Shown one piece after another: positions 3,960-19,266 of a stretch of DNA of 19,376 nt. Made by a program: the position numbers and the translations under genes. The stretch comes from a virus. A model generated the notes under the pieces. That model was not told the origin of the DNA and did no database searches. It saw nothing but the letters and a program-made list of their open reading frames with translations. The stretch is from UHGV virus genome UHGV-1605165; one strand, 5' to 3'. How positions within the stretch are numbered: the stretch's first letter is position 1; the number at the start of each line of letters is the position of its first letter.

Positions 3960-3975
3960 TTATTAAAACTCCAGA

Positions 3976-4000
3976 CAACAAAAAGCCCACCGAAGTGGGT
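3976..4000 (-). terminator. putative weak intrinsic terminator or attenuator just upstream of the tape measure gene
   Basis: Minus-strand RNA: ACCCAC-UUCG-GUGGGC followed by UUUUUGUUG (5-bp GC-rich stem, UUCG tetraloop, U-run). Lies in the 163-bp gap between the G-T stop and the tape measure start. Confidence 0.35.
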
Positions 4001-4122
4001 TTCAGGCGACATAATAGTAGATATAGCGATTACGAGGCCACGCAATGCTTTTCTCCAGGAGCATCATCGATTTAATTAAAGACACCATCACATCTCTGTA
4101 ACAGAGTGTACGTAATTAACAA

Positions 4123-4443
4123 CTACACACACTGATCCTGAAAATACTGGTCATCCAGTGCAAAGATCACTGCTTCAAACTCATCGCGCTCAATCAATAC
4201 CGGATGAGTGGCTAAATATTCATTTATCTCTGTCAGAGATAAAGGCAAAGGCACCCCGGTCATTCCAGCATAACGTCGGGCACGGGATATTACCGAATAG
4301 GCGTACAACAATTCCTTAAGCACCGGGTCTATTTCTGGTTCCGGTATCGGTGGCAACCTGAGTTTTTCTCGCTTCCATCTTGCCTTTTCCCCCCTTTCTC
4401 CCCCGAACTCCGATAACCACCGCTGGGCGGCTATGGCTTTTTT
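4123..4443 (-). CDS. T-like extension of the tail assembly chaperone, expressed only as a G-T fusion by -1 programmed frameshift
   Basis: The -1 frame relative to G is open from 4467 to the TAG at 4125..4123 and overlaps the G 3' end. The ORF-track entry 4123..4356 starts at a TTG with no independent start signal. Canonical position between G and the tape measure. Confidence 0.6.
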   Translation of the reverse strand, partial: KKAIAAQRWLSEFGGERGEKARWKREKLRLPPIPEPEIDPVLKELLYAYSVISRARRYAGMTGVPLPLSLTEINEYLATHPVLIERDEFEAVIFALDDQYFQDQCV

Positions 4444-4892
4444 ATCGTATCCTGCTTCTGCTGCTCTTTACCCTGGGCGATGCTGGCTGCTTCTGCAAGG
4501 ATCTGCCAGTACAACTCTGGATTCTGCTTAAGCAGCGCGATCCCTCGTTCTGGCGTATATTCCAGTGCAACCTCAGCACCATTAACCAGTTCACCAACCC
4601 CTTTCCAGTCTTTCAGCAGATAACGAGCAGCATTATCAATGAGTAAATCATCAACAGAATCTACCTCGGAAACCTTTGAAATATCAAACTCCTTCGTTCC
4701 GACGTGCAAACTGGCATCCATTTTCTCAATGTGACGACGGATTAATGCATTACGGGAGCGATACTGATCGTTATCGCTGCTTGCCACCAACAGTTTTAAC
4801 CCGTCTACAGGTTTTAAGTCCTTCATTGGCGTAAACCAGCGTTCTCCACCGATGATAATTTTCTGATTAAGAATAAACATCCATAACCTCAT
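4431..4892 (-). CDS. tail assembly chaperone (gpG-like)
   Basis: 153-aa ORF between tail tube and tape measure, carrying the frameshift site at its 3' end. Start is ATG 4892 or more likely ATG 4880 (GAGG 6 nt upstream). No similarity to lambda G that I recognise; call is by position and recoding signal. Confidence 0.7.
   Translation of the reverse strand: MRLWMFILNQKIIIGGERWFTPMKDLKPVDGLKLLVASSDNDQYRSRNALIRRHIEKMDASLHVGTKEFDISKVSEVDSVDDLLIDNAARYLLKDWKGVGELVNGAEVALEYTPERGIALLKQNPELYWQILAEAASIAQGKEQQKQDTIKKP
4437..4443 (-). other. -1 programmed ribosomal frameshift slippery heptamer A_AAA_AAG
   Basis: In the G frame the last codons are AUA AAA AAG CCA UAG (..I K K P stop). Heptamer A AAA AAG at 4443..4437 fits X_XXY_YYZ and is a known bacterial/phage slippery site. 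Shifting -1 enters the open T frame. Confidence 0.6.
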
Positions 4893-4901
4893 TCAATGCG
4901 T

Positions 4902-4928
4902 CCCCCTGTAGTGCAGTACCACAGGGGG
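4902..4928 (-). promoter_or_regulatory. intergenic RNA stem-loop between tail tube and chaperone genes
   Basis: Perfect 8-bp inverted repeat CCCCCTGT / ACAGGGGG with an 11-nt loop, located between the tail tube stop (4943..4941) and the G start. No U-tract follows on the mRNA strand, so not a classical terminator. Confidence 0.4.
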
Positions 4929-4940
4929 AATAACGGAAAA

Positions 4941-5903
4941 TCAACTAATCGCATCAGCCCTGGCTTTTGCGATCACGGCAGTCGGGGAGCATTTTTTTCT
5001 GGTTATCGTAGGTGCTTCATCTGCTGCGGTAATGCTCAATTGAACCTGGATAATGTCAGTATTACCCCCATCAGGCCATTCACCTGACACCTGAACCTTC
5101 GGGAAACTGAAAGTGTATGCCCCCTCTCCATTCGAAAGCGTGAAGCTGAACGGAACTGTTTCTCCAGTCAGTGTTTTACTCCAGATTTCCCACGCGGCTT
5201 TAGACCATGAAAGCGTCACCGTACCGGACGGTGTAAAAGTAGTCGGAATATTTGCTCCTGCATAAGGCGAGCCAGTCCCGATACAACGCTGTGTCTGGAG
5301 TTTGTTATCGAACTGAATATCAAAACTGTCGATACAAAAACCGTTACCTCCGGCAACACCATTCAGGCTTACTGCTGAAACCTCCTTAAACGAATAGCGT
5401 AACTTTCCTGCACTATCCACAGGTTTGCCTTTGATAAAATTCGTATCATCGGCCTTTGTTTCCCAGCCCAGCCCGGCAAAGGTTACGGTCGCTGTAATAT
5501 CGCCGTCGTTAGGGATCTGCATTTTCCATGAGCCAACCTGCGCTCCTCTGACGACAGAGGCAATTCCGACATCGGACGCATAGGTCGCCAGAGAAAATGT
5601 TATTCGCTCATTCCCCATTGTCAGAGAATCGCCTGACCATTCCGCGCCGAAACAGGATGCAAGAAAATCATCATGTTGACCCCAGCGAAATTTGGTACCA
5701 ACATCACCGCCGACATCCACAGTGCAAGGCGTCGCCCCCTGAGCCATCCGGGAGCCACCAATCTCATTATTTTCGCCTTTATTCTGGGTGGGTTTTACTC
5801 CCCAGCTTGTGCGTTTTAATAAACTCCAGTCACCACTTGCTGGCGTAGTGCCTGCAACTGTCTCCCGGATAAATGCCGAGATAACCTTTGCACCTGAACT
5901 CAC
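4941..5903 (-). CDS. major tail tube protein
   Basis: 320 aa, Gly/Thr/Ser-rich, immediately upstream of G/G-T/tape measure. GTG start at 5903 preceded by AGGAGG with 5-nt spacing. Not lambda gpV-like by my recollection; call by position and composition. Confidence 0.65.
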   Translation of the reverse strand: MSSGAKVISAFIRETVAGTTPASGDWSLLKRTSWGVKPTQNKGENNEIGGSRMAQGATPCTVDVGGDVGTKFRWGQHDDFLASCFGAEWSGDSLTMGNERITFSLATYASDVGIASVVRGAQVGSWKMQIPNDGDITATVTFAGLGWETKADDTNFIKGKPVDSAGKLRYSFKEVSAVSLNGVAGGNGFCIDSFDIQFDNKLQTQRCIGTGSPYAGANIPTTFTPSGTVTLSWSKAAWEIWSKTLTGETVPFSFTLSNGEGAYTFSFPKVQVSGEWPDGGNTDIIQVQLSITAADEAPTITRKKCSPTAVIAKARADAIS

Positions 5904-5929
5904 AGAAGCCTCCTATGTCATTAATTGCG

Positions 5930-6322
5930 CTAGAGCGCGCGATATGGAATTTGAAGATTAAGCTGGAACCAGCCATTCTTTTCGCCGACGGCTATTGAGG
6001 AAACAGCCTGGTAACTGAGACGATCGTCATCCTGAAACTCAAACAGTTCCCGCAATTTATCGGCTGTCTCAGTAATGAGTTTTGAACCAGAACCTGCGGG
6101 GACAAATAACTGAATAATGATTATCCCCGTGCGATAAACAACCGGCCCCGCGCCAATTTCATTAACCCCAGCCTGCCCGGGAATATTACTTAACCGCGCC
6201 CAGATTAACTTACCGGAAGGATCGAACGTTGGCCCGTTCGGATACAATACGTCTTTTCCATCAATAATCGTCTGTGCCGTCATTCTGGAAATAACCGTAT
6301 TTCTGATTTCAGTAAACTTCAT
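5930..6322 (-). CDS. tail terminator / tail completion protein (putative)
   Basis: 130 aa; ATG 6322 overlaps the upstream stop (ATGA); last of four coupled small genes between coat and tail tube, the usual place of the tail terminator. Confidence 0.5.
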   Translation of the reverse strand: MKFTEIRNTVISRMTAQTIIDGKDVLYPNGPTFDPSGKLIWARLSNIPGQAGVNEIGAGPVVYRTGIIIIQLFVPAGSGSKLITETADKLRELFEFQDDDRLSYQAVSSIAVGEKNGWFQLNLQIPYRAL

Positions 6323-6699
6323 TTGTAAGCCTGTAAAACACCATAAAAAGCGTTGGCATACACGCCAGTTGGCGCTTGTTGTGAATGACCGTTTTCAAGA
6401 GCCTCTGCATAAGGAAGGTTATTCTGGATATAAATAACCCCGTAATTTGCAGCTTTCGAAATAACCCCGATCCCACGCTGAACAGCAATCGTACCGTTCG
6501 GATCCACGTTATCAGATATACCAAAATCGGGATGCTGTAACGACACCAGGTTGTTATTTCTGAAACGTCCGGTATCAACCGGAGCAGCAATATCAATAGC
6601 AGTAAGAATCTGCATAGCGATGTAGCGAATCTTCAGCCCTACATCTTCCTCAATCATCCCGGCAAATATTGACGGTTCTATATCCCATGCCTTTGCCAT
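6319..6699 (-). CDS. head-tail joining (neck) protein, HK97 gp10-like (putative)
   Basis: 126 aa; motifs DTGRFRNN and LPYAEALENGHSQQAP resemble the HK97 gp10 family as I recall it; TAAATG junction with upstream gene. Confidence 0.5.
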   Translation of the reverse strand: MAKAWDIEPSIFAGMIEEDVGLKIRYIAMQILTAIDIAAPVDTGRFRNNNLVSLQHPDFGISDNVDPNGTIAVQRGIGVISKAANYGVIYIQNNLPYAEALENGHSQQAPTGVYANAFYGVLQAYK

Positions 6700-7083
6700 T
6701 TACGCTCTCCTTAACTGGATAGAGTAAACTGATGCGGAAGGATCTAAACTTGCTGTAATTACCTCGTATCGTTGTAACTGCCTTGATACAGGATCATAAA
6801 TCTCAATAATATGGTCGACAGCTGGTTTATCCGTAACCTCGCATACCAGAGCGGTTAATTTAAGGTCACCATGCAAAATATTAATCCCATCAATTCTGCC
6901 CAGCTTATAACGTGTCAACACGCCTCGCCCGGTATAGATTGCGGTGGATTCGCCGCCAGTTTCCGTCACAGGATCCCAGTGCCGGTGCGTAACGTAAGAA
7001 CCAGAAAAATCACTCACGGCGTCCGCTAAATCCTCATCAAAAGCAGCGGCAACCTCTGACTGAATCTCTTCACGAAGCCCCAT
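6700..7083 (-). CDS. head closure / head-tail connector protein (putative)
   Basis: 127 aa; start ATG 7083..7081 overlaps upstream stop (TAATG); position-based call. Confidence 0.45.
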   Translation of the reverse strand: MGLREEIQSEVAAAFDEDLADAVSDFSGSYVTHRHWDPVTETGGESTAIYTGRGVLTRYKLGRIDGINILHGDLKLTALVCEVTDKPAVDHIIEIYDPVSRQLQRYEVITASLDPSASVYSIQLRRA

Positions 7084-7478
7084 TATCCCCCCCTCACAAC
7101 CCTGACTTGTGAGCGACTAAGTCCGTACGGTTTCAGCAGTGCTATCGCAAGCTGTAAATCGGGTTCAAGCAATGCAGTGCTGTTTGCTGGCAACTCAGAA
7201 AATGATTTCGATACACTGACCCCGTCAGCCGACACGGCTTTACTGATAACAACGCCAGAATCATTTTTCTGCTGAAACAACTTACCGAATGAGGCAATTC
7301 TGGCTGCATATGCTCCCGCAAGTTTTACCTCTTCCGGAATACGGGATGGGTTAATTTTCAGGTTGAAGCCATTAAGCCAGGCATTAGCCATTAAAACAGC
7401 TTTATTTTTAGCGTTCTCACTCGTCCAGGCGTTCCCAAACGCATTATCAACGTCATCACAGGTCACGTAAGTGATCAT
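7083..7478 (-). CDS. head-tail adaptor protein (putative)
   Basis: 131 aa; ATG 7478 with AGGAG 7 nt upstream; first gene after the coat-proximal terminator and small ORF; position-based call. Confidence 0.45.
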   Translation of the reverse strand: MITYVTCDDVDNAFGNAWTSENAKNKAVLMANAWLNGFNLKINPSRIPEEVKLAGAYAARIASFGKLFQQKNDSGVVISKAVSADGVSVSKSFSELPANSTALLEPDLQLAIALLKPYGLSRSQVRVVRGG

Positions 7479-7481
7479 GTG

Positions 7482-7658
7482 TTACTCCTGAGTTTTCCAG
7501 CCCATAGCCTTCCAGTTGTCAACTTCATCAGGATGAACATTAGCGATAGTTGGTGCGCCGGGAAACATCTGATAATCGGTCACCATAACCACTAACTCAA
7601 TTTGCGTTTTTTGTGCGGCTTCACGCTGTGCTCTTTGCTCTTTAGTTAATCCGGCCAT
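7482..7658 (-). CDS. small hypothetical protein (58 aa), not in the supplied ORF track
   Basis: Hand translation of minus strand from ATG 7658..7656 to TAA 7484..7482: MAGLTKEQRAQREAAQKTQIELVVMVTDYQMFPGAPTIANVHPDEVDNWKAMGWKTQE. Fills the coat-adaptor gap without overlap and ends 3 nt before the adaptor ATG. Confidence 0.35.
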   Translation of the reverse strand: MAGLTKEQRAQREAAQKTQIELVVMVTDYQMFPGAPTIANVHPDEVDNWKAMGWKTQE

Positions 7659-7669
7659 ATGCCCCCCAT

Positions 7670-7690
7670 TAAAAATGGGGCCGAAGCCCC
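7670..7690 (-). terminator. intrinsic terminator immediately downstream of the coat gene
   Basis: Minus-strand RNA: GGGGC-UUCG-GCCCC followed by AUUUUUAAU, starting ~10 nt after the coat stop (7703..7701). A competing hairpin CCCCAUU-AAA-AAUGGGG overlaps it. Confidence 0.5.
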
Positions 7691-7700
7691 GTTTGAATGT

Positions 7701-8840
7701 TTAACCAAGAATCAGACAACCATGTGCCGGCTTCACTGATGAAACACCCCATGCCAGTCCAACTTCATAGCGCACCTGGCGATACTGACGATACAGTGCA
7801 ATCTGGAACGTAATCCCTGAAATCGGGTCCGTAACATTCATTACATCATCAGCATTATCGCCACCTTCCGGCATTGCCGGAGTACGGGATGCCAGCAGAA
7901 ACGCGTTGCGATCAAACGCCATATTTGCAGTAAAGGCCCCAACAACTGTGATGGCAGTATCATCGGCCAGATCCTGACGCAGTCCGGGCGCTGCAAGAGT
8001 AATCAGATTGCTGGTCGCTGCTGCCACAACATACTGATTCGGATCACCAGCGAACGTAACAATCTGACCTGCAGAAATACTCCCCGAACCAGTATCAATG
8101 GAAATAAGAACATCGCCTTCTTTTTTCTCTCCATTCACGAGATAACCAGTTGCAGCAACCTTTGGCGCTCGTTTCACACCTGCCGAACTGTGAATATTGA
8201 ATCCCTCCAGACGCCCCAACACGCCCTCACGCAGTAGCTGTTCAGTGCCGGATTCATTCACTTTAAACAATACAGACTGTTTTCCGCGCAAATTAGCAAT
8301 GGCAGTGGAGCCAAGCACCATCTGCAGATCGGTTGTCGGTGCGCCGTTATCCTCCAGAACCTGACGAGCCAGAGCAGCATCAGAAAGATCATCTTTAACA
8401 CCAAACGGCGTTGTCCCTGCGGTTCCCACGGCGCGGGAAGCACCGAAATACAACGCACCAAGATCAGCCTCAACCTCGTTTGCAAGGGCGCGAAAAGCCT
8501 GCTTGAACTGATCAGCCAGAATGGTGTTGTAAGTCCCTGAAGGACCAAGAGCCAGTTGTTCTTCACCATTCCATTTAACCGGTGCCATTTTGGATTTAGT
8601 AATTTTTACATCAACAGTGCCAATATTTTGATCACCGGTATTCGGAGCTGACGGCCCCGGTACGATATCTTCGGTTTTCGCCTCAGGCGCAACTGGCGCG
8701 GTTACCGTCTGATCTTTTGCTGCGGCGTCAGCTTTTGCGTTTTTTGCTACCGCAGGGATAAAACCTACCTGCTCACGGGATACAACATCCAGGGCGGTAT
8801 AAATAGTCGGGATCAACCCGGTCAGGGTATTTCCAGCCAT
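7701..8840 (-). CDS. major capsid (coat) protein, P22-coat-like
   Basis: Likely start ATG 8840 (MAGNTLTGLIPTIYTAL..., AAGGA upstream) rather than the track start 8933. ~379 aa; position after scaffold and gene order TerS-TerL-portal-scaffold-coat suggest a P22-type module; followed by a terminator. Confidence 0.75.
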   Translation of the reverse strand: MAGNTLTGLIPTIYTALDVVSREQVGFIPAVAKNAKADAAAKDQTVTAPVAPEAKTEDIVPGPSAPNTGDQNIGTVDVKITKSKMAPVKWNGEEQLALGPSGTYNTILADQFKQAFRALANEVEADLGALYFGASRAVGTAGTTPFGVKDDLSDAALARQVLEDNGAPTTDLQMVLGSTAIANLRGKQSVLFKVNESGTEQLLREGVLGRLEGFNIHSSAGVKRAPKVAATGYLVNGEKKEGDVLISIDTGSGSISAGQIVTFAGDPNQYVVAAATSNLITLAAPGLRQDLADDTAITVVGAFTANMAFDRNAFLLASRTPAMPEGGDNADDVMNVTDPISGITFQIALYRQYRQVRYEVGLAWGVSSVKPAHGCLILG

Positions 8841-8938
8841 AATTAAATATTCCTTAAAAATTTGCGTAATTGTGAATAGATGGAGTAATGAGCTATCCAG
8901 CCCTGACACCAGCTCCCATCCGGAAGCTGACAAATGTG

Positions 8939-9703
8939 TTAATCAACGATTGTGATACCGTCTTTCAATGCGTTTTGCTTACCTGCAACATCCAGTGCAT
9001 CAAAAGCAGAGCGTTTCATCGTTTTCTGACCAATATCATGCTGTGTCGGACGGGAGCCGCCGCCATTGTTGCCACTGGCTTTCAGGATGTAGTCTTTCTG
9101 AGGGTAATTTTCGACAAGGAACTCCAGCGCCTCATCAAACTGCGCCAGTTCGCCAGGCTTCGCGCGGGAATAAATTTTGTTGCCGGAAGCGTCATAAGCA
9201 ACGATCCTCCCTTCTTCCACTTTGAATGCCTGCCCGAAGCGTGATTGTAATAAATCTGCCGGGATCGCAATTTTATCGGCAATATATTTTGAACCCGCAA
9301 AACTACCGCCAATCATAGAATCGTAAAGCTGCTTCTCCAGCATCTGAGAGCGTTGCTTTTCTTCATCTAATTGCTGCTGAAAATTTTTCGTAATTTCTGC
9401 CTTAACCTGGTCAACCTGTCCCGCATCGAGCAGCTTTTTCTGGTCGATTTTTGACAGCATTTCCAGTGCCTCGATCGCCTTCTTCGGGTCTTCGATAGCG
9501 GCAAACTTAGCCAGTTTTTCCTCTGCAGCTTCTTTAGCCAGGCGATGATTTTTTGCCTCGCTATTAAGCTCTGTAATTTTTTTTGTCGCCAGCGGTGCAT
9601 CGAAGCCAATTTCTTTACCATCGTCGTGCACATAAACTGGCAGGCCAGCAGTATCAATTTCTGCGTATTGTTTTCCGTTAATCTCGACCGTTTTCAGTTT
9701 CAT
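8939..9703 (-). CDS. scaffolding protein (putative)
   Basis: Real start most likely ATG 9703 (MKLKTVEINGKQYAEID...), because the track's extended start at 9775 would read through a terminator hairpin. Glu/Lys-rich helical middle region (AKEAAEEKLAKFAAIEDPKKAIEALEMLSKIDQKKLL); position between head morphogenesis and coat. Confidence 0.55.
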   Translation of the reverse strand: MKLKTVEINGKQYAEIDTAGLPVYVHDDGKEIGFDAPLATKKITELNSEAKNHRLAKEAAEEKLAKFAAIEDPKKAIEALEMLSKIDQKKLLDAGQVDQVKAEITKNFQQQLDEEKQRSQMLEKQLYDSMIGGSFAGSKYIADKIAIPADLLQSRFGQAFKVEEGRIVAYDASGNKIYSRAKPGELAQFDEALEFLVENYPQKDYILKASGNNGGGSRPTQHDIGQKTMKRSAFDALDVAGKQNALKDGITIVD

Positions 9704-9760
9704 ATTAGTACCTGGTTTAAGTCTTCCGACAGTTACGCTGCTCACCATCCGGATCGCAGC

Positions 9761-9788
9761 AATAAAAAAGGCCACCCGAAGGTAGCCT
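9761..9788 (-). terminator. intrinsic terminator between head-morphogenesis and scaffold genes
   Basis: Minus-strand RNA: AGGCUACC-UUCG-GGUGGCCU (8-bp stem with one U-G wobble, UUCG loop) followed by UUUUUUAUU. On the plus strand the same stem has a C-A mismatch, so it is oriented with late transcription. Confidence 0.6.
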
Positions 9789-9807
9789 GTTGTAATAAAT
9801 GATTTAT

Positions 9808-10923
9808 TTAAATCCCTGCTTTTCTGAATACCTGTGCATCACGCTCACGGAGCTGCTTCAGCGTCAGCCATTCGCCTTTATCGGTGTAAAATTCATCTGG
9901 CGACATACCACCATCCCGAATCAGCTTTGCTCGGGTTTCCCCCACAATCTGTTTTTGTCTGGTGTAAGGCTGACGCAAAAACCATTCCCTGTAGGTTGTA
10001 TCTCCGGCCACCACGCCATCCATGCTGGCCCGCTCAGCCGGGGAAATATCGCGAACATCAATACCCAGTTCCTTCGCTGATTTCAGAATGAACGTTTCCG
10101 TTGAGCGGCAGCAGAAATGAATTTTTCCCGGCCCCTGCAAATAAGGCACGCTGTGACCTACAGGTTTATTATTCAGCGTATATTTGAGGCGATCCCTGAT
10201 TCGACATTGTGGCGTAGTACGATTATCAAGCGTTGATAACCATTGCTTACCCTTAATCAAATCATTATTCGCGCTGGCAAAACTCTCACGGGCAGTAGCA
10301 GCAAGATGTCCAACCGCTGTTTTTGCAATGCTGGCCGCATTAGCCCGGCTCATCTGCAATGCACCATCCTGAAATCCCTTACTGACATGTCCCCGAATTT
10401 TTCTTGCGATCTGCTCATTGGTATCCCCCAGCAAAAAACCCTGACGCACTGTATTTGTTATGCGTCTGAGCCGATCCGCCTCAAGATCTGAGGCCCACTC
10501 ACTGAGCAGTCGTCCCTGAAATGGTCGCGCCATTGCAGCGGCATAAAGTGCATCAGGAGAGATACCAACCAGAGGGTGAACATCAGCAACAAAATCAGGT
10601 AGCATAGAATCAAACAGACTTAACTGATAACCAGCCTCATAAATTGCCAGCTCGTTCAGCTCTCCGGAGAGACTGGTAAACATGCTGTTAATAGCAGTGC
10701 GGTTAACCTCTCTGACGCTCGCCAGAAGTGACTCCAGGCGCTTAACGGTAAAACTACCTGGATCGAGGCTGTCCAGTGCTATCAGCAGGCGAGCAGTAAG
10801 TTCCGCATCGCTGTCATTCAGTATTTTCACCATTCTGGCAGCCACGCCAGTGCTATAGCGGGATATCCAGACTGCATGAGCAATTGATTCATCACGCAGC
10901 CGTTCATTCACGGTTTGCATCAT
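9808..10923 (-). CDS. head morphogenesis protein (Mu F / SPP1 gp7-like minor head protein)
   Basis: 371 aa directly downstream of the portal with a 20-nt overlap, the conserved position of this family; ATG 10923. Confidence 0.65.
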   Translation of the reverse strand: MMQTVNERLRDESIAHAVWISRYSTGVAARMVKILNDSDAELTARLLIALDSLDPGSFTVKRLESLLASVREVNRTAINSMFTSLSGELNELAIYEAGYQLSLFDSMLPDFVADVHPLVGISPDALYAAAMARPFQGRLLSEWASDLEADRLRRITNTVRQGFLLGDTNEQIARKIRGHVSKGFQDGALQMSRANAASIAKTAVGHLAATARESFASANNDLIKGKQWLSTLDNRTTPQCRIRDRLKYTLNNKPVGHSVPYLQGPGKIHFCCRSTETFILKSAKELGIDVRDISPAERASMDGVVAGDTTYREWFLRQPYTRQKQIVGETRAKLIRDGGMSPDEFYTDKGEWLTLKQLRERDAQVFRKAGI

Positions 10924-12310
10924 TGATTTCCATCAGCATTACACTCTGATTTTTTAATTCATCGATCACTTCCTCTGGACGGGAATCCTGATCGATAAAT
11001 TTCAACGCCTGCAACACCCGAATCGCATCAATCTGACGTATATCACCGCCCTGACGCAATGACTGAACAGCCAGCGCGGAGGATGAGTCAAACACCTGGG
11101 CAGATACATCCAGTTCAGTGCGCACATCCACATTGCCACCGCAACTCTCTCCGATCCATTCCGCCATTATCTGGAGAATATTATCGAGGGCATCTTCGAG
11201 GGAGTTCGCCATTGTATAAAGCGGCGAGTTTTCCTGCATTCGCTCTTCATTAGTCTGATCAACAGATTTGGTGGATGTATTTTCAGCACGCAGAAGTTTA
11301 GCGCCGGCATGACGCATCTGATTTTCCAGCTTCTCAAGTGATGTTTCGCCAGATTCTATCGCTGCGCCACTATGTTCAACATATTCGAGGCCATTTTTTG
11401 TTCTGTCCTCAAAAATCGTAGCGGTGGATGCACCAACCGTCAGTTCTTCATTCCTGTCCAGCCCGTAGGCCACCAGCAATGGAACGCGGGCAACATGAAG
11501 AATATTGTCCTGCTCGCTCTGGCTTTGCCAGTGCTTGATATTCAGCAAGCCAAGATTAAGCAATGGCGGTGTACCACGCATAAATCCTGTTTTCTTCGTG
11601 TACAGTGTTACCAGAGGAATATCATCACGGCTGGTATTCCATGACTCATGAAGCGTCCAGACAGATTCGCCATTAGTGCCTTCGCTACGTCGATAAATTT
11701 CAACTCGACGGGGCATAATATGGCGGATCTGCTCCACCTTCTTCTGCCCGAAATCATCACCATCAATAATGATGACCTCTTTTATACGCAAATCAGTGAG
11801 AACAACTTTCCCTTTTTCAACTTTCGATTTCCATCCAATAACCTGGCGTGGATTCAGCATCGTAACGTACGGACGACTACCGGCCGCGTTTTCATCGGCT
11901 TTTGTCCGAATCTCTTTCATATCCGTTCGTGGATAGTCCACCAGCGCATGTGCCACACCATACTGAAATGCGAGGCTGAAAAATTGCTGCGCCCACACAT
12001 CCAGTCGGCTCCCCTCCATGTCGATATTTTCTGCATATTCCCTGATTTTTGCCGGCGTTTCCTCACTCAATACTGTCGGCTCTGCAAATATGCGCCCAAT
12101 ATTTTGCTTGATGCTTTCTTCATACACAGGAAGTAGCGTAGCCACAGACAGGCGTTTTTTATAAGCGTCTTCATCTTCGTTAGGCCATTTTGGGAGATAA
12201 TTTTCCCCCTGCCTGCGCATTTCAAGCGTACCGCCCATCAGTGCGTCGTTAATATCCCACGCCTCCAGCATATCGTTATAGTCGAGGTTGGGTGTTGATA
12301 TATCAGCCAT
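10904..12310 (-). CDS. portal protein
   Basis: 468 aa immediately downstream of TerL (stop TAA 12315..12313, ATG 12310); size and position typical of a portal. Confidence 0.75.
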   Translation of the reverse strand: MADISTPNLDYNDMLEAWDINDALMGGTLEMRRQGENYLPKWPNEDEDAYKKRLSVATLLPVYEESIKQNIGRIFAEPTVLSEETPAKIREYAENIDMEGSRLDVWAQQFFSLAFQYGVAHALVDYPRTDMKEIRTKADENAAGSRPYVTMLNPRQVIGWKSKVEKGKVVLTDLRIKEVIIIDGDDFGQKKVEQIRHIMPRRVEIYRRSEGTNGESVWTLHESWNTSRDDIPLVTLYTKKTGFMRGTPPLLNLGLLNIKHWQSQSEQDNILHVARVPLLVAYGLDRNEELTVGASTATIFEDRTKNGLEYVEHSGAAIESGETSLEKLENQMRHAGAKLLRAENTSTKSVDQTNEERMQENSPLYTMANSLEDALDNILQIMAEWIGESCGGNVDVRTELDVSAQVFDSSSALAVQSLRQGGDIRQIDAIRVLQALKFIDQDSRPEEVIDELKNQSVMLMEINDANRE

Positions 12311-12312
12311 AA

Positions 12313-13620
12313 TTAAATCCGAAGTGATGTGACTCTTCCGGTCGGTTTGACAATAGGGAATTGCTTAACGATGAAATAACCTCCGGCATCATTCGGGTGA
12401 TCATTGCCAGATTTTTTATCAGGCTCCCCCTTCTCATCCCAGACCTGTTGCTCCAGAGATTCGGCATATAACGGGCAACGCTTCACATTAACTTTATAGC
12501 GACGCTCACCATTGGCATTGCAGAACATTGCATTCATTGAGTTAACGCGATCTTTTACTGGCGGGTTCGAGCTGTTCACCACAACGTTAAAACCAGCCTG
12601 CTTAAGCTGGGCTATATCCGTCGTACTTGCGTTACTTGATTTTCTGGAATCCCCGGAAGCATCTGGATAAATATAAATTTCCCTCACTTTCCGGTAATCA
12701 TTCCCATCATACAGCCAGAAGCGTTCTTTAATGATGCGGATCATATCCGGCGTATCGTAGGCATTGATGATTTCAGTTACCGCACATGGAAGCCCCAAAC
12801 GCAGCACATGGACGATTCCCGCCATCTTTCCAACGTTAAAATCCATCCCAATATAAATCGGCTCCCCTGGCTGCTCCACTTCTTCGCAATTATTCAGTTT
12901 CCGGTCAAACTGATGGTAAACAGTACCACTTGTCAGGTTAGTAAACTGTCCTCGCAGATAGGCTTTAATCAGCTCTGGAGGGTATGATTCAAGAAGCGAA
13001 GGAATGTAATCTGCTGGCAGGTTCTTTTCATTATCGAAAGTAGATGCCTGCACCAGACCATACAGTGAGGCCAGCTCTGTTTTTTCACGCACGGCTTTAA
13101 CAAACTGCTCGTAGACAAATTTGAATCCTTCCGGCGTGGTTGTAACGTCAATACCGTTGCGAAGTCCATCAATCTTATAACGCATACGCGCAATTATCTT
13201 GCGCCACGCCGTTCTGGCTTTTTCCTTCGGCAAAATGTCCAGTTCATCCACCAACGCATTACCAATTTTGAAACCGACGATCGTTTGTGGCTTCTCCATC
13301 GATCTGCAGATAGTGGTTCCCCGATACTGGCGTCCGTAATAAAAGTGAACCTCTTTATTTCCCTCATTAATTTTTACGTTCAATCCCCAGTCAGCAGCAA
13401 CTTCTTCCACTGTAGGGTAAAAAATATCGCGAATTTGGGGATACGTTGGCGCAAAATATCCCTGATTTATACCTGGATGCTCCCAAATCCCCTTGCATAT
13501 GCCGCCACACCCAACCCATGTTTTGCCCGAGCCAAAACCAGCAATATAGGCTTTAAATTTATGGGGCATTGAAAGAAATCGCGCCTGAGGCACATTAAGC
13601 GTCGGAGAGATCATCTTCAT
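12313..13620 (-). CDS. terminase large subunit
   Basis: Walker A ATPase motif GFGSGKT near the N-terminus; ~435 aa; start probably ATG 13620 or 13614 (AAGGAG upstream), overlapping the TerS 3' end. Confidence 0.85.
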   Translation of the reverse strand: MKMISPTLNVPQARFLSMPHKFKAYIAGFGSGKTWVGCGGICKGIWEHPGINQGYFAPTYPQIRDIFYPTVEEVAADWGLNVKINEGNKEVHFYYGRQYRGTTICRSMEKPQTIVGFKIGNALVDELDILPKEKARTAWRKIIARMRYKIDGLRNGIDVTTTPEGFKFVYEQFVKAVREKTELASLYGLVQASTFDNEKNLPADYIPSLLESYPPELIKAYLRGQFTNLTSGTVYHQFDRKLNNCEEVEQPGEPIYIGMDFNVGKMAGIVHVLRLGLPCAVTEIINAYDTPDMIRIIKERFWLYDGNDYRKVREIYIYPDASGDSRKSSNASTTDIAQLKQAGFNVVVNSSNPPVKDRVNSMNAMFCNANGERRYKVNVKRCPLYAESLEQQVWDEKGEPDKKSGNDHPNDAGGYFIVKQFPIVKPTGRVTSLRI

Positions 13621-14689
13621 CACTCCTTACTCTGGCATCAACCACATTAATATTGATCGCCACAGGCTGGGGATGTTCATTATCTTCCACCGTTTCGATC
13701 TCTTTGCGCAGCTTCTGGTTTTCCATTCTGCGCCGTTCAATTTCCAGTTCCTGTAGCCGCTTATCTGCACATAAAGCCCCGCCAGCAGAAAGCAAACGCA
13801 ACAATTCACGCCGGGCGGCAGCCTTATCCTCCAGCAGGATCTCAACGCCGAATTTTCCGAATTTTGCCCCTGCATATAATTGCCGCGCATCCCCATCAAG
13901 CAGAGTGGTATCAGCCATATAAAGCTGTCCCGTTCCCTCACCGCAGCACTTCGGGCAGTCCGGATTGGGTATGGCGTTATCAACAAAGCCGAGGCCTCCA
14001 TATTCCGGTTCGGGTTTGCCATCTCTGGAAGCCTGCGCCGCTGCCTTGTCGAATTCTGCTATATCGCGCCACTGGTAGAGATGATTCTCGCCCCAGCAAT
14101 AACGGCAGTTAACACGGCGAAATTGTGCAAGCTGATTGGGGTCGGCCAGGACAATGGCCATCAACTGACTCACTAGTAAATCCAGGTCTGCGGTATAGCG
14201 TTTCTGGTACTGATTGCGGAAGTAGCTGATAGCGCGAAAAACCCTGGCATTTCTAAGCATACGACTGGCGTTGCTGTTAGCTGTCGCACCTTGCCCCTCA
14301 TAACCGGCTAGTCGGTACGCCTCTGTCGGCTTTTTACCCTGAGCAACAAGCATCGCAAACTTAGCCTGCTGGTCAGAAATGCCGAATTCATCGGGACAGA
14401 ACGAAAATTCCTCCGCGTCGCCCTCATTCAGGCCCGCATCGAATACTGGCTTTTTTTCCTGAGATTTTTCGTTCCGCTTTTGTGCAGTCTGCGCAGATTT
14501 TTTCTGCGCACTTTTTTGCGCAGTTTTGCGCATTTCTGTCTGCGCATTTTTCGGAGTTTTTTTGATGTAACGACGGGCTGTTGCGTAATTCAGTCCCCTT
14601 GCTTCACACCATGCCACCGGAGATATACCGGAGCGGGTGTATTCAGCAATATACTCCTGCTGCAACGCCCCCCAGTCCGGTCTGCTCAT
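13595..14689 (-). CDS. terminase small subunit (atypically long, 364 aa)
   Basis: Central segment MLVAQGKKPTEAYRLAGYEGQGATANSNASRMLRNARVFRAISYF resembles the TerS HTH (Terminase_2-like). Also has an N-terminal HTH-like segment, a Lys/Gln-rich low-complexity linker and a Cys cluster (CRYC...CPKCC). Directly upstream of TerL. Confidence 0.6.
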   Translation of the reverse strand: MSRPDWGALQQEYIAEYTRSGISPVAWCEARGLNYATARRYIKKTPKNAQTEMRKTAQKSAQKKSAQTAQKRNEKSQEKKPVFDAGLNEGDAEEFSFCPDEFGISDQQAKFAMLVAQGKKPTEAYRLAGYEGQGATANSNASRMLRNARVFRAISYFRNQYQKRYTADLDLLVSQLMAIVLADPNQLAQFRRVNCRYCWGENHLYQWRDIAEFDKAAAQASRDGKPEPEYGGLGFVDNAIPNPDCPKCCGEGTGQLYMADTTLLDGDARQLYAGAKFGKFGVEILLEDKAAARRELLRLLSAGGALCADKRLQELEIERRRMENQKLRKEIETVEDNEHPQPVAININVVDARVRSDEDDLSDA

Positions 14690-14692
14690 CAG

Positions 14693-14944
14693 TTAGTCCT
14701 GATTTTTATCCACCCTGAGTAGTTCGCGCAGAGCAAAGGCATCCCCTTTTCTGGCAAGCTTAAACAATGCCGCTCGTAACTCGGCTTCACCTTTCGCTCT
14801 GCCCTTACGGATGGCCGCATAAAAATCTGTCATTGCTTCCCGATTTTCTTTCAGTCGGTTCAGATCAACATCCAGAACGTCAGCGATTTGTTGTGCAGTC
14901 ATCCGGCACGCTGCCAGAGACTCGACTTTCGAATACGGAATCAT
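14693..14944 (-). CDS. small HTH-like DNA-binding protein (83 aa), translationally coupled to TerS
   Basis: Stop TAA 14695..14693 lies 3 nt before the TerS ATG. QQIADVLDVDLNRL resembles winged-HTH openings such as lambda Nu1 KQLADIFGASIRTI. ATG 14944 has a GGGGG stretch upstream, but the gene overlaps the preceding gene by 65 nt, so the start is uncertain. Confidence 0.4.
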   Translation of the reverse strand: MIPYSKVESLAACRMTAQQIADVLDVDLNRLKENREAMTDFYAAIRKGRAKGEAELRAALFKLARKGDAFALRELLRVDKNQD

Positions 14945-15812
14945 TTGTCACCCCCATTGATATGCAGGGTGTCTTCTTCCTGTATTTTTCGTGAAGGATT
15001 TTTACTGCAGCGTTGTTCCAGGTGACCTGATGGTGAATGCGTTTATGGCTGGCACCCATCAGTGAAATTTTTACGCACGACGGCGCATACATGACGGAGT
15101 AAAAACTTTTAACGTAGGTTCCGGAATCCAGATACAGCTCGGTCATTCCGCCGCTGTTTTTCTGCGTCTGTTTCTGCCCTAACTGGACAGCACCGATCGT
15201 CATAAACAATTCACCACAGCGACCGAGATTCGTGTACGTATTCACATCCTCGTTAATGCGCCCCATGAATGAGAACGGTCGATCAACCGAACAGATAAAG
15301 CTGTTCATTGCCTTGCGTTTCACCCACGAAGCATGGCCGCCATTGTCACCAAGAAAATCCCCGCCCTGCGACATAGCGATGGAAAGAGCAGGTATTGATT
15401 CGTAGTACGCCAGCATTTCAGAAAGGATCGCATCCAGTTTCCTTATCGGAAAATAGGCCTGGTCATAGTTGCGATCCACCCGAAACTGGAACTCGTGATA
15501 ATCATCATCGAGCTGAATGAAGTATTTACACCCGACCAGTTTTGCCAGGTCGAAACAGGCATTACGGGCGTAAAAAATTGAGCGGCGGTCACAGAAATTA
15601 TCGGCTTCGTCAAAACGACTGGCGATATCGGCTTTGGAAAACACCAGCACCTGTTCACCAAATTCAGCCATGTACTGATGCCGTGTCTTATCTTCATCAT
15701 CAACAACGATAAAAATTTTCCCGGTATAGCCAGCACGACGCAACGTCCGGTAAGTCAGAACTTTGTCCGGTCGCCCGTGAGTCAGAATAAAGGCGCAAAA
15801 ATCATCACGCAT
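14880..15812 (-). CDS. GT-A-fold glycosyltransferase-like protein (nucleotide-sugar transferase-like), function unknown
   Basis: Likely start ATG 15812 (MRDDFCAFILTHGRPDK...) preceded by GAGGAGGAGGAA. Motif series CAFILTHGRPD, KIFIVVDDEDKT and YFIQLDDDYHEF follows the GT2/GT-A pattern (beta1, IVVDDxS/T box, DxD). No transmembrane segment evident. Confidence 0.5.
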   Translation of the reverse strand: MRDDFCAFILTHGRPDKVLTYRTLRRAGYTGKIFIVVDDEDKTRHQYMAEFGEQVLVFSKADIASRFDEADNFCDRRSIFYARNACFDLAKLVGCKYFIQLDDDYHEFQFRVDRNYDQAYFPIRKLDAILSEMLAYYESIPALSIAMSQGGDFLGDNGGHASWVKRKAMNSFICSVDRPFSFMGRINEDVNTYTNLGRCGELFMTIGAVQLGQKQTQKNSGGMTELYLDSGTYVKSFYSVMYAPSCVKISLMGASHKRIHHQVTWNNAAVKILHEKYRKKTPCISMGVTNDSVFESRVSGSVPDDCTTNR

Positions 15813-16596
15813 ATTCCTCCTCCTCACCACCATGCATGATCTCCACCATGCGCTGCGTCATCCGGACAAATCCATTTTCAATAGCCTGCTGATAATCAAT
15901 GATCACCAGCGCCGACTCCTCGAAAAAACACTGAATTTCAGAGGGGGCGTGAGCGTAATAGTCCGCAATTCTGCTGAAATTAAACACCGTGTGACGTTCT
16001 GCCGCACACAGGAGGAATTTCTCAATATCAGGCTCAAGGGACGCCGAACGTATCCGGCTGATCAGCTCCTGAGTTTTCGTATCGTCGTACAGTTCACTGA
16101 TATCCGGTTTACCGCCCGACGGCTCATAAACAGGCGTATCAATTTTCGTCGTATACGGCTCCTCCTCATTTCCTGTACCGGGCAAAACATCCGTCAACAG
16201 TTCATCAATTTCTGTCGGGATGAAGCCTGTCAGGGAGACATCAAAATCAGCATTGATTAGGTCCGACAGCTCCATCCGCAACAGATCTTCATCCCAGCCA
16301 GCATTCATCGGCAGGCGATTATCTGCCAGGCGGTACGCCTTTTTCTGCTCATCCGTCAGGCCAGACAGAACAATGACCGGAACAGAATCCATTTTGAGCA
16401 TTTCAGCCGCCATAACACGACCGTGACCCGCAATAATTTCGCCCTTTTCGTCAATCAGCACCGGATTAGTCCAGCCGAATTGCTTAATACTTTCTACCAG
16501 TTGTGCCACCTGCTCAGTACTGTGCGTCCTGGCGTTGTGCGCATACGGTGACAATTCTTGTAATGGGCGATAGACTATCTTTAATTTCTCGCTCAT
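15805..16596 (-). CDS. ParB/Srx-like nuclease-domain protein
   Basis: N-terminal SPYAHNARTHSTEQVAQLVESIKQFGWTNPVLIDEKGEIIAGHGRVMAAEMLKMDSVPVIV matches the ParB N-terminal domain signature (GxxR box). ~160-aa acidic C-terminal region with no motif I recognise. ATG 16596. Confidence 0.7.
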   Translation of the reverse strand: MSEKLKIVYRPLQELSPYAHNARTHSTEQVAQLVESIKQFGWTNPVLIDEKGEIIAGHGRVMAAEMLKMDSVPVIVLSGLTDEQKKAYRLADNRLPMNAGWDEDLLRMELSDLINADFDVSLTGFIPTEIDELLTDVLPGTGNEEEPYTTKIDTPVYEPSGGKPDISELYDDTKTQELISRIRSASLEPDIEKFLLCAAERHTVFNFSRIADYYAHAPSEIQCFFEESALVIIDYQQAIENGFVRMTQRMVEIMHGGEEEEYA

Positions 16597-16610
16597 ACAG
16601 CCTTGCTTTA

Positions 16611-16647
16611 TGAATAAAACGCACCCCAGCAGCCAGTGCTACTGGGG
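16611..16647 (-). terminator. putative intrinsic terminator downstream of trkG
   Basis: Minus-strand RNA: CCCCAGUAG-CACUGG-CUGCUGGGG (9-bp stem with one U-G wobble) followed by UGCGUUUUAUU; in the 137-bp gap between the trkG stop and the ParB-like start. Confidence 0.45.
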
Positions 16648-16733
16648 ACGGAGGTGTTGCTGGTAAAGTTAGGTATTGGATCAATGAGTGAGTCAACATA
16701 ATATTAAACTCACAATTATAAATCAGCCATATA

Positions 16734-18191
16734 TTAGGAGCGCCAAAAAAAACCTGAAAACAATATAATAACAGGATAAATTTCAAGGCGACCAAGAATC
16801 ATAGCTATGCACATTAAACATTTTGCAATGTCATTAAGCACTCCGAATGACGATGCAGTAGCCCCAAAACCTAATCCCATATTATTAATACATGCAGCCA
16901 CTGTTGCAAATGATGTAAGAAAATCATATCCCATACCATTTAACACCAGTATAAAAAACACCGTGAAGAGAGTATAAAGAAAAAAGAAACTCCATACAGA
17001 CCTCATTACACGATCTGTAACTATCTTCCCTCCTACATTTACACTCAACAACGCTCTGGGATGAGAAAGCTGATTTATCTCGTGTTTGCTTTGTTTGAAA
17101 AGTATAAGAAATCGAAGTGACTTAATTCCACCACAAGTTGAACCTATACATCCCCCAAAGAAACTTGACAACAGCAAAAACACTATCGTGTGCGTGGGCC
17201 AACTTGCATAATCCTGCGTAGCTAAACCATTATCAGTGAGCATGGAGCTGGCAAGAAAAAACGAATGAATAAAACTTCCATGCAAGTCATACATACCTAT
17301 ATGCCAGACCTGGAAAGAGGTAACAATGATCACACCTAAGGCTATTAACAGAAAGAAACGAAGTTCAATATCTCTGATTAAAGGTTTTATCGTTTTCCTG
17401 CTAATAACAATATACCAAAGAGTGAAGTTGAAAGCCGATAGCAGGGAAAAAGAACCAGCCACCAGCTCAACCAAATAGTTATTAAAATATCCGATACTCT
17501 CGCTATGAGTTGAGAAACCACCAAGCGAAACTGTGGAAATCCCGTGACAAATAGCATCAAACAAAGGCATTCCTGCAAGTCTATAACAGACAATACAAGC
17601 AATACCTAATAAAGAATAAGTTATCCACAGTGTCCGTGACGTATCGGCCAGGCGGGGAGTGAGTTTGTCATCCTTAAATGGCCCCGGCATTTCTGACTGA
17701 TAAAGCTTTGCACCACCAATACCCAATAATGGCAATACAGCAACCGCCAGAACAATAACTCCTAAACCACCTATAAAATTTAACTGTGACCGATAGTACA
17801 AATATGCCCGAGGTAATGAACTAACATCATCAATTACAGTTGCTCCTGTTGTTGTTATTCCAGAAACCCCTTCAAACAGAGCATCAATGAACGTTAAATT
17901 AAGTTCTGAGTCAATCCATAAAGGGAATGCACTAATAACAGAAAACAAAATCCAAAACATTACAATTATAATAAACCCATCACGGGTACGTAATTGAATG
18001 CCAGATTTCTTAGTTGTATACCACGCTCCGCCACCAATGCAAAAAAATATAACGAAAGTTATAAAGAAAACAAACAGGCTTTTTTCTTTATAAAACAATG
18101 CTACAACCATTGGTGGCAACATTGAAAGACTATAGAGCCAAACCAGGAACCCACACATATGAGTAACAACTCTTACATGAGATGTATTCAT
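16734..18191 (-). CDS. trkG: Trk-system K+ uptake protein TrkG (TrkH family), prophage moron
   Basis: Polytopic membrane protein with TrkH-family segments FEGVSGITTTGATV, GGLGVIVLAVAVLPLLGIGGAKLYQSEMPGPFKDDKLTPRLADT and C-terminal GRLEIYPVIILFSGFFWRS. Likely start ATG 18191 (MNTSHVRVV..., 485 aa) rather than the TTG at 18209. Markedly AT-rich compared with flanks. E. coli K-12 trkG lies in the Rac prophage next to Rz-like genes. Confidence 0.9.
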   Translation of the reverse strand: MNTSHVRVVTHMCGFLVWLYSLSMLPPMVVALFYKEKSLFVFFITFVIFFCIGGGAWYTTKKSGIQLRTRDGFIIIVMFWILFSVISAFPLWIDSELNLTFIDALFEGVSGITTTGATVIDDVSSLPRAYLYYRSQLNFIGGLGVIVLAVAVLPLLGIGGAKLYQSEMPGPFKDDKLTPRLADTSRTLWITYSLLGIACIVCYRLAGMPLFDAICHGISTVSLGGFSTHSESIGYFNNYLVELVAGSFSLLSAFNFTLWYIVISRKTIKPLIRDIELRFFLLIALGVIIVTSFQVWHIGMYDLHGSFIHSFFLASSMLTDNGLATQDYASWPTHTIVFLLLSSFFGGCIGSTCGGIKSLRFLILFKQSKHEINQLSHPRALLSVNVGGKIVTDRVMRSVWSFFFLYTLFTVFFILVLNGMGYDFLTSFATVAACINNMGLGFGATASSFGVLNDIAKCLMCIAMILGRLEIYPVIILFSGFFWRS

Positions 18192-18328
18192 ATCTAAATA
18201 TTCTTTCAATTATAACCACCTTGCTGCAATATTATGATTATACTGTATAAAATTTAACTCCTCTTAGATCTTACTTCACTGTTCCTTATGAAACAATCAT
18301 CAAAATGAATCATATTGTAGTTAAGATT

Positions 18329-18793
18329 TTACTTTAAACACTGCTCGGTTATGTATTGCTGAGCACCTTCAAGTTGGGCCTGCATCATTACCAGTCGTTC
18401 CCGGAGGGTGAAATAATCCCGTTCAGCGGTGTCTGCCAGTCGGGGGGAGGCTGCATTATCCACGCCGGAGGCGGTGGTGGCTTCACGCACTGACTGACAG
18501 ACTGCTTTGATGTGCAACCGACGACGACCAGCGGCAACATCATCACGCAGAGCATCATTTTCAGCTTTCGCATCAGCTAACTCCTTCGTGTATTTTGCAT
18601 CGAGCGCAGCAACATCACGCTGACGCATCTGCATCTCAGTAATTGCCGCGTTCGCCAGCTTCAGTTCTCTGGCATTTTTGTCGCGCTGGGCTTTGTAGGT
18701 AATGGCGTTATCGCGGTAATGATTAACAGCCCATGACAGGCAGACGATGATGCAGATAACCAGAGCGGAGATAATCGCGGTTACTCTGCTCAT
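18329..18793 (-). CDS. Rz: i-spanin Rz
   Basis: [51 protein letters not shown]... is near-identical to lambda Rz as I recall it; start overlaps the R stop (ATGA). Confidence 0.9.
18388..18573 (-). CDS. Rz1: o-spanin Rz1 (lipoprotein), embedded in the +1 frame of Rz
   Basis: [56 protein letters not shown]...: lipobox LVVVGC and proline-rich core, matching lambda Rz1; wholly inside Rz. Confidence 0.85.
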
Positions 18794-19266
18794 ACCTCAA
18801 TCTCTCTGACCGTTCCGCCTGCTTCTTTGAATTTTGCAATCAGGCTGTCAGCCTTATGCTCGAACTGACCATAACCAGCACCCGGCAGTGAAGCCCAGAT
18901 ATTGCTGCAACGGTCAATTGCCTGACGAATATCACCGCGATCAATCATCGGTAAAGCGCCACGCTCTTTAATCTGCTGCAATGCCACAGCGTCCTGGCTT
19001 TTGGGGGAGAAGTCTTTCAAACCAAGCTGTTTACGGTAAGCATCCCACCAACGGGAAAGAAGCTGATAACGTCCGGCAGCTGTTGATTTAAGTTTCGGGT
19101 TTAGCGTGACAAGTTTGCGAGGATGATCGGAGTAATCAGTAAACAGTTCACCACCAACAATAACATCATAACCGTGGTTACGTGTCGGTTGTCGCCCGTT
19201 ATCCGTTCCCTCTGACCACGCCAACATATCGAGGAAAGCTTTACGCTGAGGATTAAGATTTTGCAT
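18790..19266 (-). CDS. R: endolysin, lambda R-type lytic transglycosylase
   Basis: 158 aa; [66 protein letters not shown]... is near-identical to lambda R as I recall it. Confidence 0.93.

Follow-up and report, generated by a model that had tools for sequence, protein, structure and literature searches.

Morons of lambdoid phages, for example bor and lom of lambda, are extra genes that lie between modules, deviate in base composition, carry a promoter and terminator of their own, are expressed from the repressed prophage, and benefit the host. The concept reportedly goes back to Juhala and Hendrix in 2000, and lambda carries bor in the slot just downstream of Rz. In E. coli, trkG has been known as a low-GC foreign gene inside the Rac prophage since 1991 (Schlosser et al. 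1991/1995, as cited in PMC9898762). The K-12 TrkG protein performs a Na+-dependent uptake of K+ and works together with the host protein TrkA (PMC9898762), and its repression by H-NS and its distinct transport properties have been described by Tanudjaja et al. 2022 (PMC9898762). Moreover, a survey of 154 genomes placed trkG among the best-conserved Rac genes (PMC5700373).

The block at 16597..18328 of the window (the whole 19,376-nt stretch of virus genome UHGV-1605165 that was analyzed) is very probably a moron of this kind: foreign and AT-rich, equipped with its own promoter region and terminator, and situated at the lysis/packaging junction of a Rac-type lambdoid prophage. All long ORFs of the window lie on the minus strand. 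In the direction of transcription, they begin with the holin gene, which is cut off by the window end so that only its end lies inside, followed by the endolysin gene R (18790..19266) and by Rz (18329..18793), which encodes the i-spanin (Pfam Phage_lysis, E = 3.5e-53, full length) and is the last gene of the lysis cassette. The o-spanin gene Rz1 (18388..18573, from the ORF list) is embedded in Rz and corresponds to rzoR of K-12. The S-R-Rz region of lambda aligns with the window at ~91.5% nucleotide identity, and this homology ends near 18339, at the end of Rz. Beyond trkG, the first packaging-side gene encodes a 263-aa protein with a ParB_N domain (15805..16596; Pfam ParB_N, phrog_620, E = 1e-90), followed by a gene for a glycosyltransferase-like protein (14880..15833; TAGT/phrog_842, by profile search), a small ORF, terS, terL, and the genes for the portal (DUF4055) and a Mu-F-like head protein. 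The scaffold (DUF6651), P22-type coat protein, head–tail connectors, tail terminator, and tail tube come next, and the chaperone-slot ORFs, the tape measure protein (1077 aa), and a minor tail protein close the series. The position that the sequence-only reading had given to trkG, between the lysis cassette and the packaging-side genes, is therefore right, with an intact S'-R-Rz/Rz1 cassette on one side and the ParB-like, glycosyltransferase-like, terS, and terL genes on the other. As a separate observation, the ParB-like and glycosyltransferase-like genes are a conserved pair with which the packaging module begins.

The trkG gene itself (16734..18191, minus strand) starts with ATG and encodes 485 aa according to the ORF list and the profile searches, and the mechanically called ORF reaches to a TTG at 18209, which would give 491 aa. 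Its product matches Pfam TrkH (PF02386) with E = 5e-145 and 484 bits (cut-off 27) over positions 3-500 of 502, scores 415 bits against TIGR00933, above the curated family threshold of 331, and aligns through residues 7-485 with residues 4-485 of the solved TrkH of V. parahaemolyticus (4J9U/3PJZ; E = 1.2e-120). These three lines of evidence agree with the earlier assignment to a full-length K+ transporter of the TrkH family, and the search for Trk-family homology, on which that assignment depended, returned strong matches. The product scores only 449.7 bits against the TrkH equivalog NF008020, whose cut-off is 866; it is the paralogue TrkG and not TrkH. Moreover, positions 16450..18494 differ from the Rac prophage of E. 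coli K-12 MG1655 at 2 nucleotides over 2045 aligned bases. Both differences fall in third-codon positions of trkG and are synonymous (2 in 1458 nt), so that the amino-acid sequence of TrkG is the same as that of the K-12 protein, and the gaps upstream and downstream of the gene are identical to those of K-12, including the hairpin and both TATAAT hexamers discussed below. Judged by this near-identity, the gene is trkG of Rac prophages, and its product would be a subunit for Na+-dependent K+ uptake that uses the TrkA of the host.

The comparison with K-12, which had been recommended together with the claim that the element is an undecayed Rac-like phage, extends well beyond trkG, and besides the 2 nucleotides just mentioned it brought to light a deletion of 11.56 kb in K-12. 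The K-12 sequence aligns to window positions 18773..16343 at 99.6% and to 4782..3025 at 98.6%, and, since the homology jumps from 16343 to 4782, K-12 Rac lacks window positions 4783..16342 (11.56 kb). In addition, the K-12-type Rac alignment begins only at 18773, thus K-12 has lost the beginning of Rz together with all that precedes it as far as ydaW, a loss that covers R, S, Q, and the nin region. The K-12 gene ynaK corresponds to the 5' end of the ParB-like gene (~85 of 263 codons), with the deletion joint at window position 16343, and ydaY corresponds to the 3' part of a 153-aa ORF (4431..4892) in the tail-chaperone slot; as 11.56 kb are lost between them, both K-12 genes are deletion stumps. 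K-12 Rac is the same element, shortened by two deletions that left trkG in place. The window, which holds the 11.56 kb missing from K-12, has an undecayed late region, and the collinear, near-identical DNA on either side of the K-12 deletions identifies it, by alignment, as an undeleted Rac-type late region whose late operon is intact inside the window. The window ends inside the holin gene, and the early region is therefore out of view; the remaining marks of a Rac-type element, namely the early genes (intR, xisR, ralR, recET, kilR, sieB, racR, and ydaS-W) and integration at ttcA, belong to sequence outside the window. The nearest genome, NZ_CP053787.1, shows 1 mismatch, and its RefSeq annotation includes trkG and its neighbors. 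In that genome, an IS1 copy lies ~290 bp past the window end, just upstream of the holin gene, a stop codon interrupts the tail-tip gene J, and the element is found next to Mu-like tail genes at icd/e14 rather than at ttcA. The claim of an undecayed phage thus stands for the late region, where the 11.56 kb are present, and is limited to it.

The base composition of the block sets it apart from the rest of the window. Its GC content is 37.2%, compared with 47.3 ± 1.7% in windows of the same size elsewhere (z = -6), and the lowest-GC window of that size in the whole sequence falls on the trkG block. By part, the GC content amounts to 37.9% in the coding sequence, 25.5% in the upstream gap, and 40.9% in the downstream gap, while the GC3 of trkG is 0.32 versus 0.39-0.55 in nine other genes, and its synonymous codon usage is shifted to ATA, TTA, AGA, and GGA. 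The sliding-window GC (z = -6) and GC3 analyses called for by the sequence-only reading thus bear out its view that the gene is visibly poorer in GC than both flanks. Its description of AT-rich gaps on both sides is accurate for the upstream gap and overstated for the downstream one, which is only moderately AT-rich because of the G+C-rich hairpin inside it. The low GC could also be a by-product of encoding a hydrophobic membrane protein, with trkG an old resident of the phage lineage rather than cargo; TrkG does contain much Phe, Leu, and Ile, amino acids with T-rich codons, and no trkG-free relative of the Rz/ParB-like junction was found in the genome searches described below. However, GC3 is independent of amino-acid content, so that its deviation, together with the synonymous shift to ATA, TTA, and AGA, separates the GC contrast from the amino-acid content of a membrane protein. 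Moreover, the native E. coli paralogue trkH, which encodes a similar membrane protein, has a GC content of 53% (PMC9898762), so that coding for a membrane protein does not account for the low GC of trkG. The non-coding upstream gap is even lower in GC, TrkG-type genes elsewhere lie outside prophages, and trkG is missing from a phage with a related packaging module. The by-product explanation, together with long residence in the phage lineage, is largely refuted by GC3 and extremely improbable, and the trkG block is supported as compositionally foreign.

The upstream gap (18192..18328, minus strand; 137 nt by sequence and K-12 alignment) contains two perfect TATAAT hexamers (18242..18237 and 18214..18209), both lacking a good -35 element, which is what the sequence-only reading had described. 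The sole match of a promoter scanner in the upstream region was TTTAAA-18-TATGAT (18338..18309), and promoter-like matches around trkG were no more frequent than in shuffled controls. A Shine–Dalgarno-like AAGGTGG lies at 18222..18216, and the start of trkG may be the alternative TTG at 18209, six codons 5' of the annotated ATG at 18191.

Published experiments on the K-12 gene speak for expression from a promoter close to trkG. Genomic SELEX with the RpoD holoenzyme located a constitutive promoter at trkG, among the few strong prophage peaks (PMC5811629), and a lux reporter was driven by a fragment extending from 510 bp upstream of trkG to the base before its ATG (PMC9898762), the primers for which map to K-12 and to window positions 18698..18192. 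In K-12, trkG and trkH are transcribed to similar levels, and the trkG transcript increases in hns and hns stpA mutants, in line with a partial repression by H-NS and StpA (PMC9898762). The upstream gap is thus the likely site of a sigma-70 promoter for trkG and of H-NS binding. The alternative that trkG, lacking its own promoter, is transcribed solely within the late transcript of the phage, as a late-phase gene rather than a lysogen-expressed moron, would agree with the lack of a good -35 element, with the failure of the scanner to find a strong sigma-70 site in the upstream gap, and with the arrangement of trkG, which reads in the direction of the late operon and, in full-length relatives, follows Q/pR'. 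Nevertheless, it is highly improbable, since K-12 Rac, which according to the comparison above has no Q or pR' upstream of trkG and also lacks S and R, still transcribes the gene at about the level of trkH and the upstream fragment drives a reporter (PMC9898762), since an RpoD holoenzyme site was found at trkG (PMC5811629), and since rzoR and trkG are not joined in an RNA-seq compendium (P = 0.43; PMC10392735). Dependence on late read-through, suggested earlier, is for the same reasons unsupported as the main route of expression. By its identity to the K-12 gene, trkG would instead be expressed from the quiescent prophage and partly silenced by H-NS/StpA.

The downstream gap (16597..16733, minus strand; 137 nt) contains a small hairpin right after the stop codon and then a structure resembling an intrinsic terminator (16613..16650, minus strand). 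Its stem spans 16650..16620 on the mRNA strand, with 13 pairs, one bulge, and an ACUG loop, around a core stem of 10 bp (16647..16624), and is followed by UUUUAUU (16619..16613). The predicted free energy is -22.5 kcal/mol (z = -5.35), equalled by 0 of 200 shuffles. As a prediction, the structure of a terminator belonging to trkG is convincing, and the claims of the sequence-only reading agree with it, except that a stem of 9 bp was a slight undercount. The hairpin could also be a stem-loop that stabilizes the 3' end of the mRNA, or a weak pause site, and not an effective terminator, so that trkG and the ParB-like gene would form one operon. An RNA-seq compendium does call trkG-ynaK-ydaY one unit (P = 0.52; PMC10392735), the U-tract is short and interrupted, and trkG goes unmentioned in a Term-seq supplement; neither this supplement nor a ROSE supplement lists mapped transcript ends for trkG. 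On the other hand, the stem is strong and far from the shuffles, with the U-run directly after it, the P value is borderline, and the trkG-ynaK pair is not listed as an operon in RegulonDB, which makes this explanation unlikely. The predicted terminator is possibly leaky, as the weak joining of trkG-ynaK-ydaY at P = 0.52 hints. A search against Rfam gave zero matches anywhere in the window, and no credible hidden gene was found among the small ORFs of the two trkG gaps.

Deviant base composition and a predicted downstream terminator, both of them properties of morons, are thus present at trkG. A further property, the direct adjacency of the flanking genes in relatives without trkG, was not found in 5426 E. 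coli genomes or in a GTDB scan. A chimeric empty site of 600 nt, made from the 3' end of Rz and the 5' end of the ParB-like gene, was covered in both halves in 0 of the 5426 genomes. The GTDB scan, performed with the ParB-like protein on one genome per species, found close relatives only in Escherichia/Shigella (E. ruysiae, Shigella flexneri, and E. coli), all of them with trkG, and when phage records were searched at the nucleotide level with the ParB/glycosyltransferase flank, only ten records matched, which carry trkG as well. Direct or inverted repeats flanking the block amount to short AT-rich chance matches. As no empty-site relative was found, the insertion event and its exact edges cannot be reconstructed. 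Thus, of the earlier statement that trkG was inserted here, the position is confirmed, and we infer the insertion itself from the base composition, the signals belonging to the block, and the homologues outside prophages, since no relative with Rz next to the ParB-like gene was found. Acquisition through specialized transduction by aberrant excision was considered and rejected, because trkG is located centrally on the prophage map and not next to an attachment site.

Indirect support for a cargo slot at this junction comes from three comparisons: the end of the lambda homology at Rz, the ParB-like and glycosyltransferase-like pair that also opens the packaging module in Lactobacillus phages (40% identity), and Klebsiella phage 5 LV-2017, which shares the terS-to-head module at 73% nucleotide identity and has unrelated small ORFs of lowered GC in the interval from lysis genes to terS. 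TrkG-type proteins with 60-79% identity occur in E. fergusonii, Citrobacter, Pectobacterium, Pantoea, Enterobacter, Serratia, and Xenorhabdus. None of the three loci inspected (in E. fergusonii, Pectobacterium, and Serratia; 66-79% identity) is a lambdoid prophage, their contexts being a chromosomal island beside porin genes, a site adjoining ychF, and a P4-like island. Outside E. coli, the best homologue is the chromosomal gene of E. fergusonii (79% protein and 72% DNA identity), and no donor of trkG was found among these homologues. Nucleotide homology with the E. fergusonii locus is limited to window positions 18214..16730, that is, to the gene without the gaps, so that the promoter gap and the terminator would be specific to the Rac copy. 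The TrkG-type gene of Pectobacterium is AT-poorer than its flanks, that of Serratia only in comparison with the left flank, and that of E. fergusonii is not distinct from its own low-GC surroundings.

The trkG block, counted where at least 80% of 16400..18600 was present, occurs in 1521 of 5426 complete E. coli genomes, and the whole 19.4-kb window (at least 80% in one place) occurs in 694 of them. Among the ten phage-collection records that carry the block, ON470614 joins the late region to a Rac early region with int, xis, ralR, recT, recE, racC, kil, sieB, a repressor, replication genes, and Q. Nine of these records bear names of the form vB_EcoS-###R#, and these names, together with extents from integrase to tail, resemble predicted prophage regions, therefore the records were not taken as evidence of phage viability. 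In K-12, trkG survives deletions on both sides (4783..16342 and all sequence upstream of 18773), and strain WCHEC050613 keeps nothing but holin'-R-Rz-trkG-ynaK' between two IS1 copies. Both patterns fit a selection at the level of the host for keeping trkG.

A mechanism can be proposed for the two states of the phage. In the lysogen, a sigma-70 promoter in the AT-rich upstream gap would drive trkG modestly and be damped by H-NS/StpA, the gap carrying both the promoter and an H-NS nucleation site, and most transcripts would end at the hairpin and U-tract (16650..16613), so that the virion genes would stay silent. The TrkG produced would then form a Na+-dependent K+ uptake system with the TrkA of the host. 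During lytic growth, RNA polymerase modified by Q would, by analogy with lambda, read from pR' through trkG and its terminator into the packaging and structural genes. Since trkG is co-oriented with the late operon and placed between pR' and the structural genes, it must then be highly transcribed late in infection. It is conceivable, though improbable, that trkG serves the phage itself, as an auxiliary gene with a dual mode rather than as a moron for lysogenic conversion alone. If this were true, late TrkG could restore the K+/Na+ balance or the membrane potential and so sustain particle production, and it could adjust when lysis occurs or act against superinfecting phages.

The finding of trkG as a moron is correct but already known, as its essentials have been published or annotated, and the undeleted late region is common, being present with annotation in hundreds of E. 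coli genomes of RefSeq. As a reference, the window is useful for what K-12 Rac has lost, for the possible TTG start, and for the retention of trkG as nearby phage genes decay.

Compared with described systems, the closest is trkG of K-12 Rac (b1363), which is the same gene with the same neighbors, Rz/Rz1 upstream and the ParB-like gene downstream; unlike in K-12, Rz and R are intact here, the ParB-like gene is complete, and the packaging, head, and tail genes of the 11.56-kb segment are present. The TrkH proteins of E. coli and V. parahaemolyticus (PDB 3PJZ, 4J9U) share family and length with TrkG and align with it from end to end; however, trkH of E. coli has a GC content of 53%, in contrast to 38% for trkG here, and the product of trkG remains under the TrkH equivalog cut-off. 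As with the lambdoid morons bor and lom, trkG lies between conserved modules, deviates in base composition, and has a predicted terminator, and it would share with them the expression from the repressed prophage and a benefit to the host. It differs from them in its unusually large size (1.46 kb), in its co-orientation with the late operon, in the absence of a trkG-free sibling phage from the 5426 E. coli genomes, and in that it encodes an ion transporter of housekeeping type that needs host partners such as TrkA.

Base-level mapping of the internal deletion of the Rac prophage in E. coli K-12 (NC_000913.3, about 1425630) showed that window positions 4783..16342, or 11.56 kb, are missing, and that window 16343 and window 4782 are fused, overlapping by 2 nt. 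Thus, ynaK and ydaY, located 3' of trkG in K-12, are the two stumps left by this joint, with lengths of 87 and 119 aa, respectively. In a compendium of 3376 RNA-seq data sets, trkG-ynaK-ydaY was called as one transcription unit (P = 0.52), and rzoR, the K-12 counterpart of Rz1, was not joined to trkG (P = 0.43; PMC10392735). Since trkG, ynaK, and ydaY are called as a single unit, the strong-looking, terminator-like hairpin in the gap 3' of trkG (16597..16733) may be leaky in K-12.

The ydaY stump corresponds to the 3' part of a 153-aa ORF (4431..4892), which, together with another minus-strand ORF (4123..4356), occupies the tail-chaperone slot, with the tail tube on one side and the tape measure on the other. 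Of the ORFs at 4123..4356 and 4431..4892, the second matches Phage_TAC_18 weakly, with a score under the Pfam threshold. The location of the two ORFs suggests a chaperone pair of the lambda G/GT type, in which a programmed frameshift could possibly occur.

The 485-aa TrkG form encoded from the annotated ATG matches positions 7-491 of the 491-position PHROG 1916 profile, and many trkG homologues are 491 aa long and start at the codon equivalent to TTG 18209. This TTG, on the minus strand six codons 5' of the annotated ATG, is a candidate start, with an SD-like AAGGTGG 6 nt upstream (18209..18222, minus strand), and the annotated ATG lacks a good SD in the window sequence. Moreover, the trkG homologue of E. 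fergusonii keeps GGAGG-TATAA-TTG at the equivalent place, and an SD is absent 5' of its annotated ATG (L005 5950..6030). Judging from these sequence features, translation of trkG may start at TTG 18209 instead of the annotated ATG.

The E. coli genome nearest to the window, NZ_CP053787.1 (1815000-1864900), differs from it by 1 mismatch. Its Rac-type late region lies at the icd/e14 locus, not at ttcA, and adjoins Mu-like tail genes, with an IS1 just 5' of the holin gene and a J gene containing an internal stop. In NZ_CP019213.3, also at icd/e14, the remnant consists only of holin'-R-Rz-trkG-ynaK', with an IS1 copy on each side.

Directly ahead of terS, on the minus strand of 14880..16596, a gene for a full-length ParB_N-domain protein (263 aa) overlaps one for a TAGT/phrog_842 glycosyltransferase-like protein (317 aa). 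RefSeq PGAP annotation carries the intact ParB-like gene of NZ_CP053787 as a truncated 'ynaK' pseudogene, presumably because only the stump is present in K-12. In Lactobacillus phages phiLdb, c5, and jlb1, the genome begins with the same order, ParB-like, glycosyltransferase, and terminase, and their ParB-like proteins show 40% identity to that of the window across the whole protein. The pair may constitute a putative DNA-modification or packaging-linked module. Klebsiella phage 5 LV-2017 has the terS-to-head module in common with the window (73% nt), and an unannotated interval of ~1.7 kb extends from its lysis genes to terS (L033 10777..12512), with a GC content of 0.42-0.48 versus 0.55-0.59 and several small ORFs on both strands. 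This junction, where trkG lies in the window, apparently serves as a slot for cargo in general.
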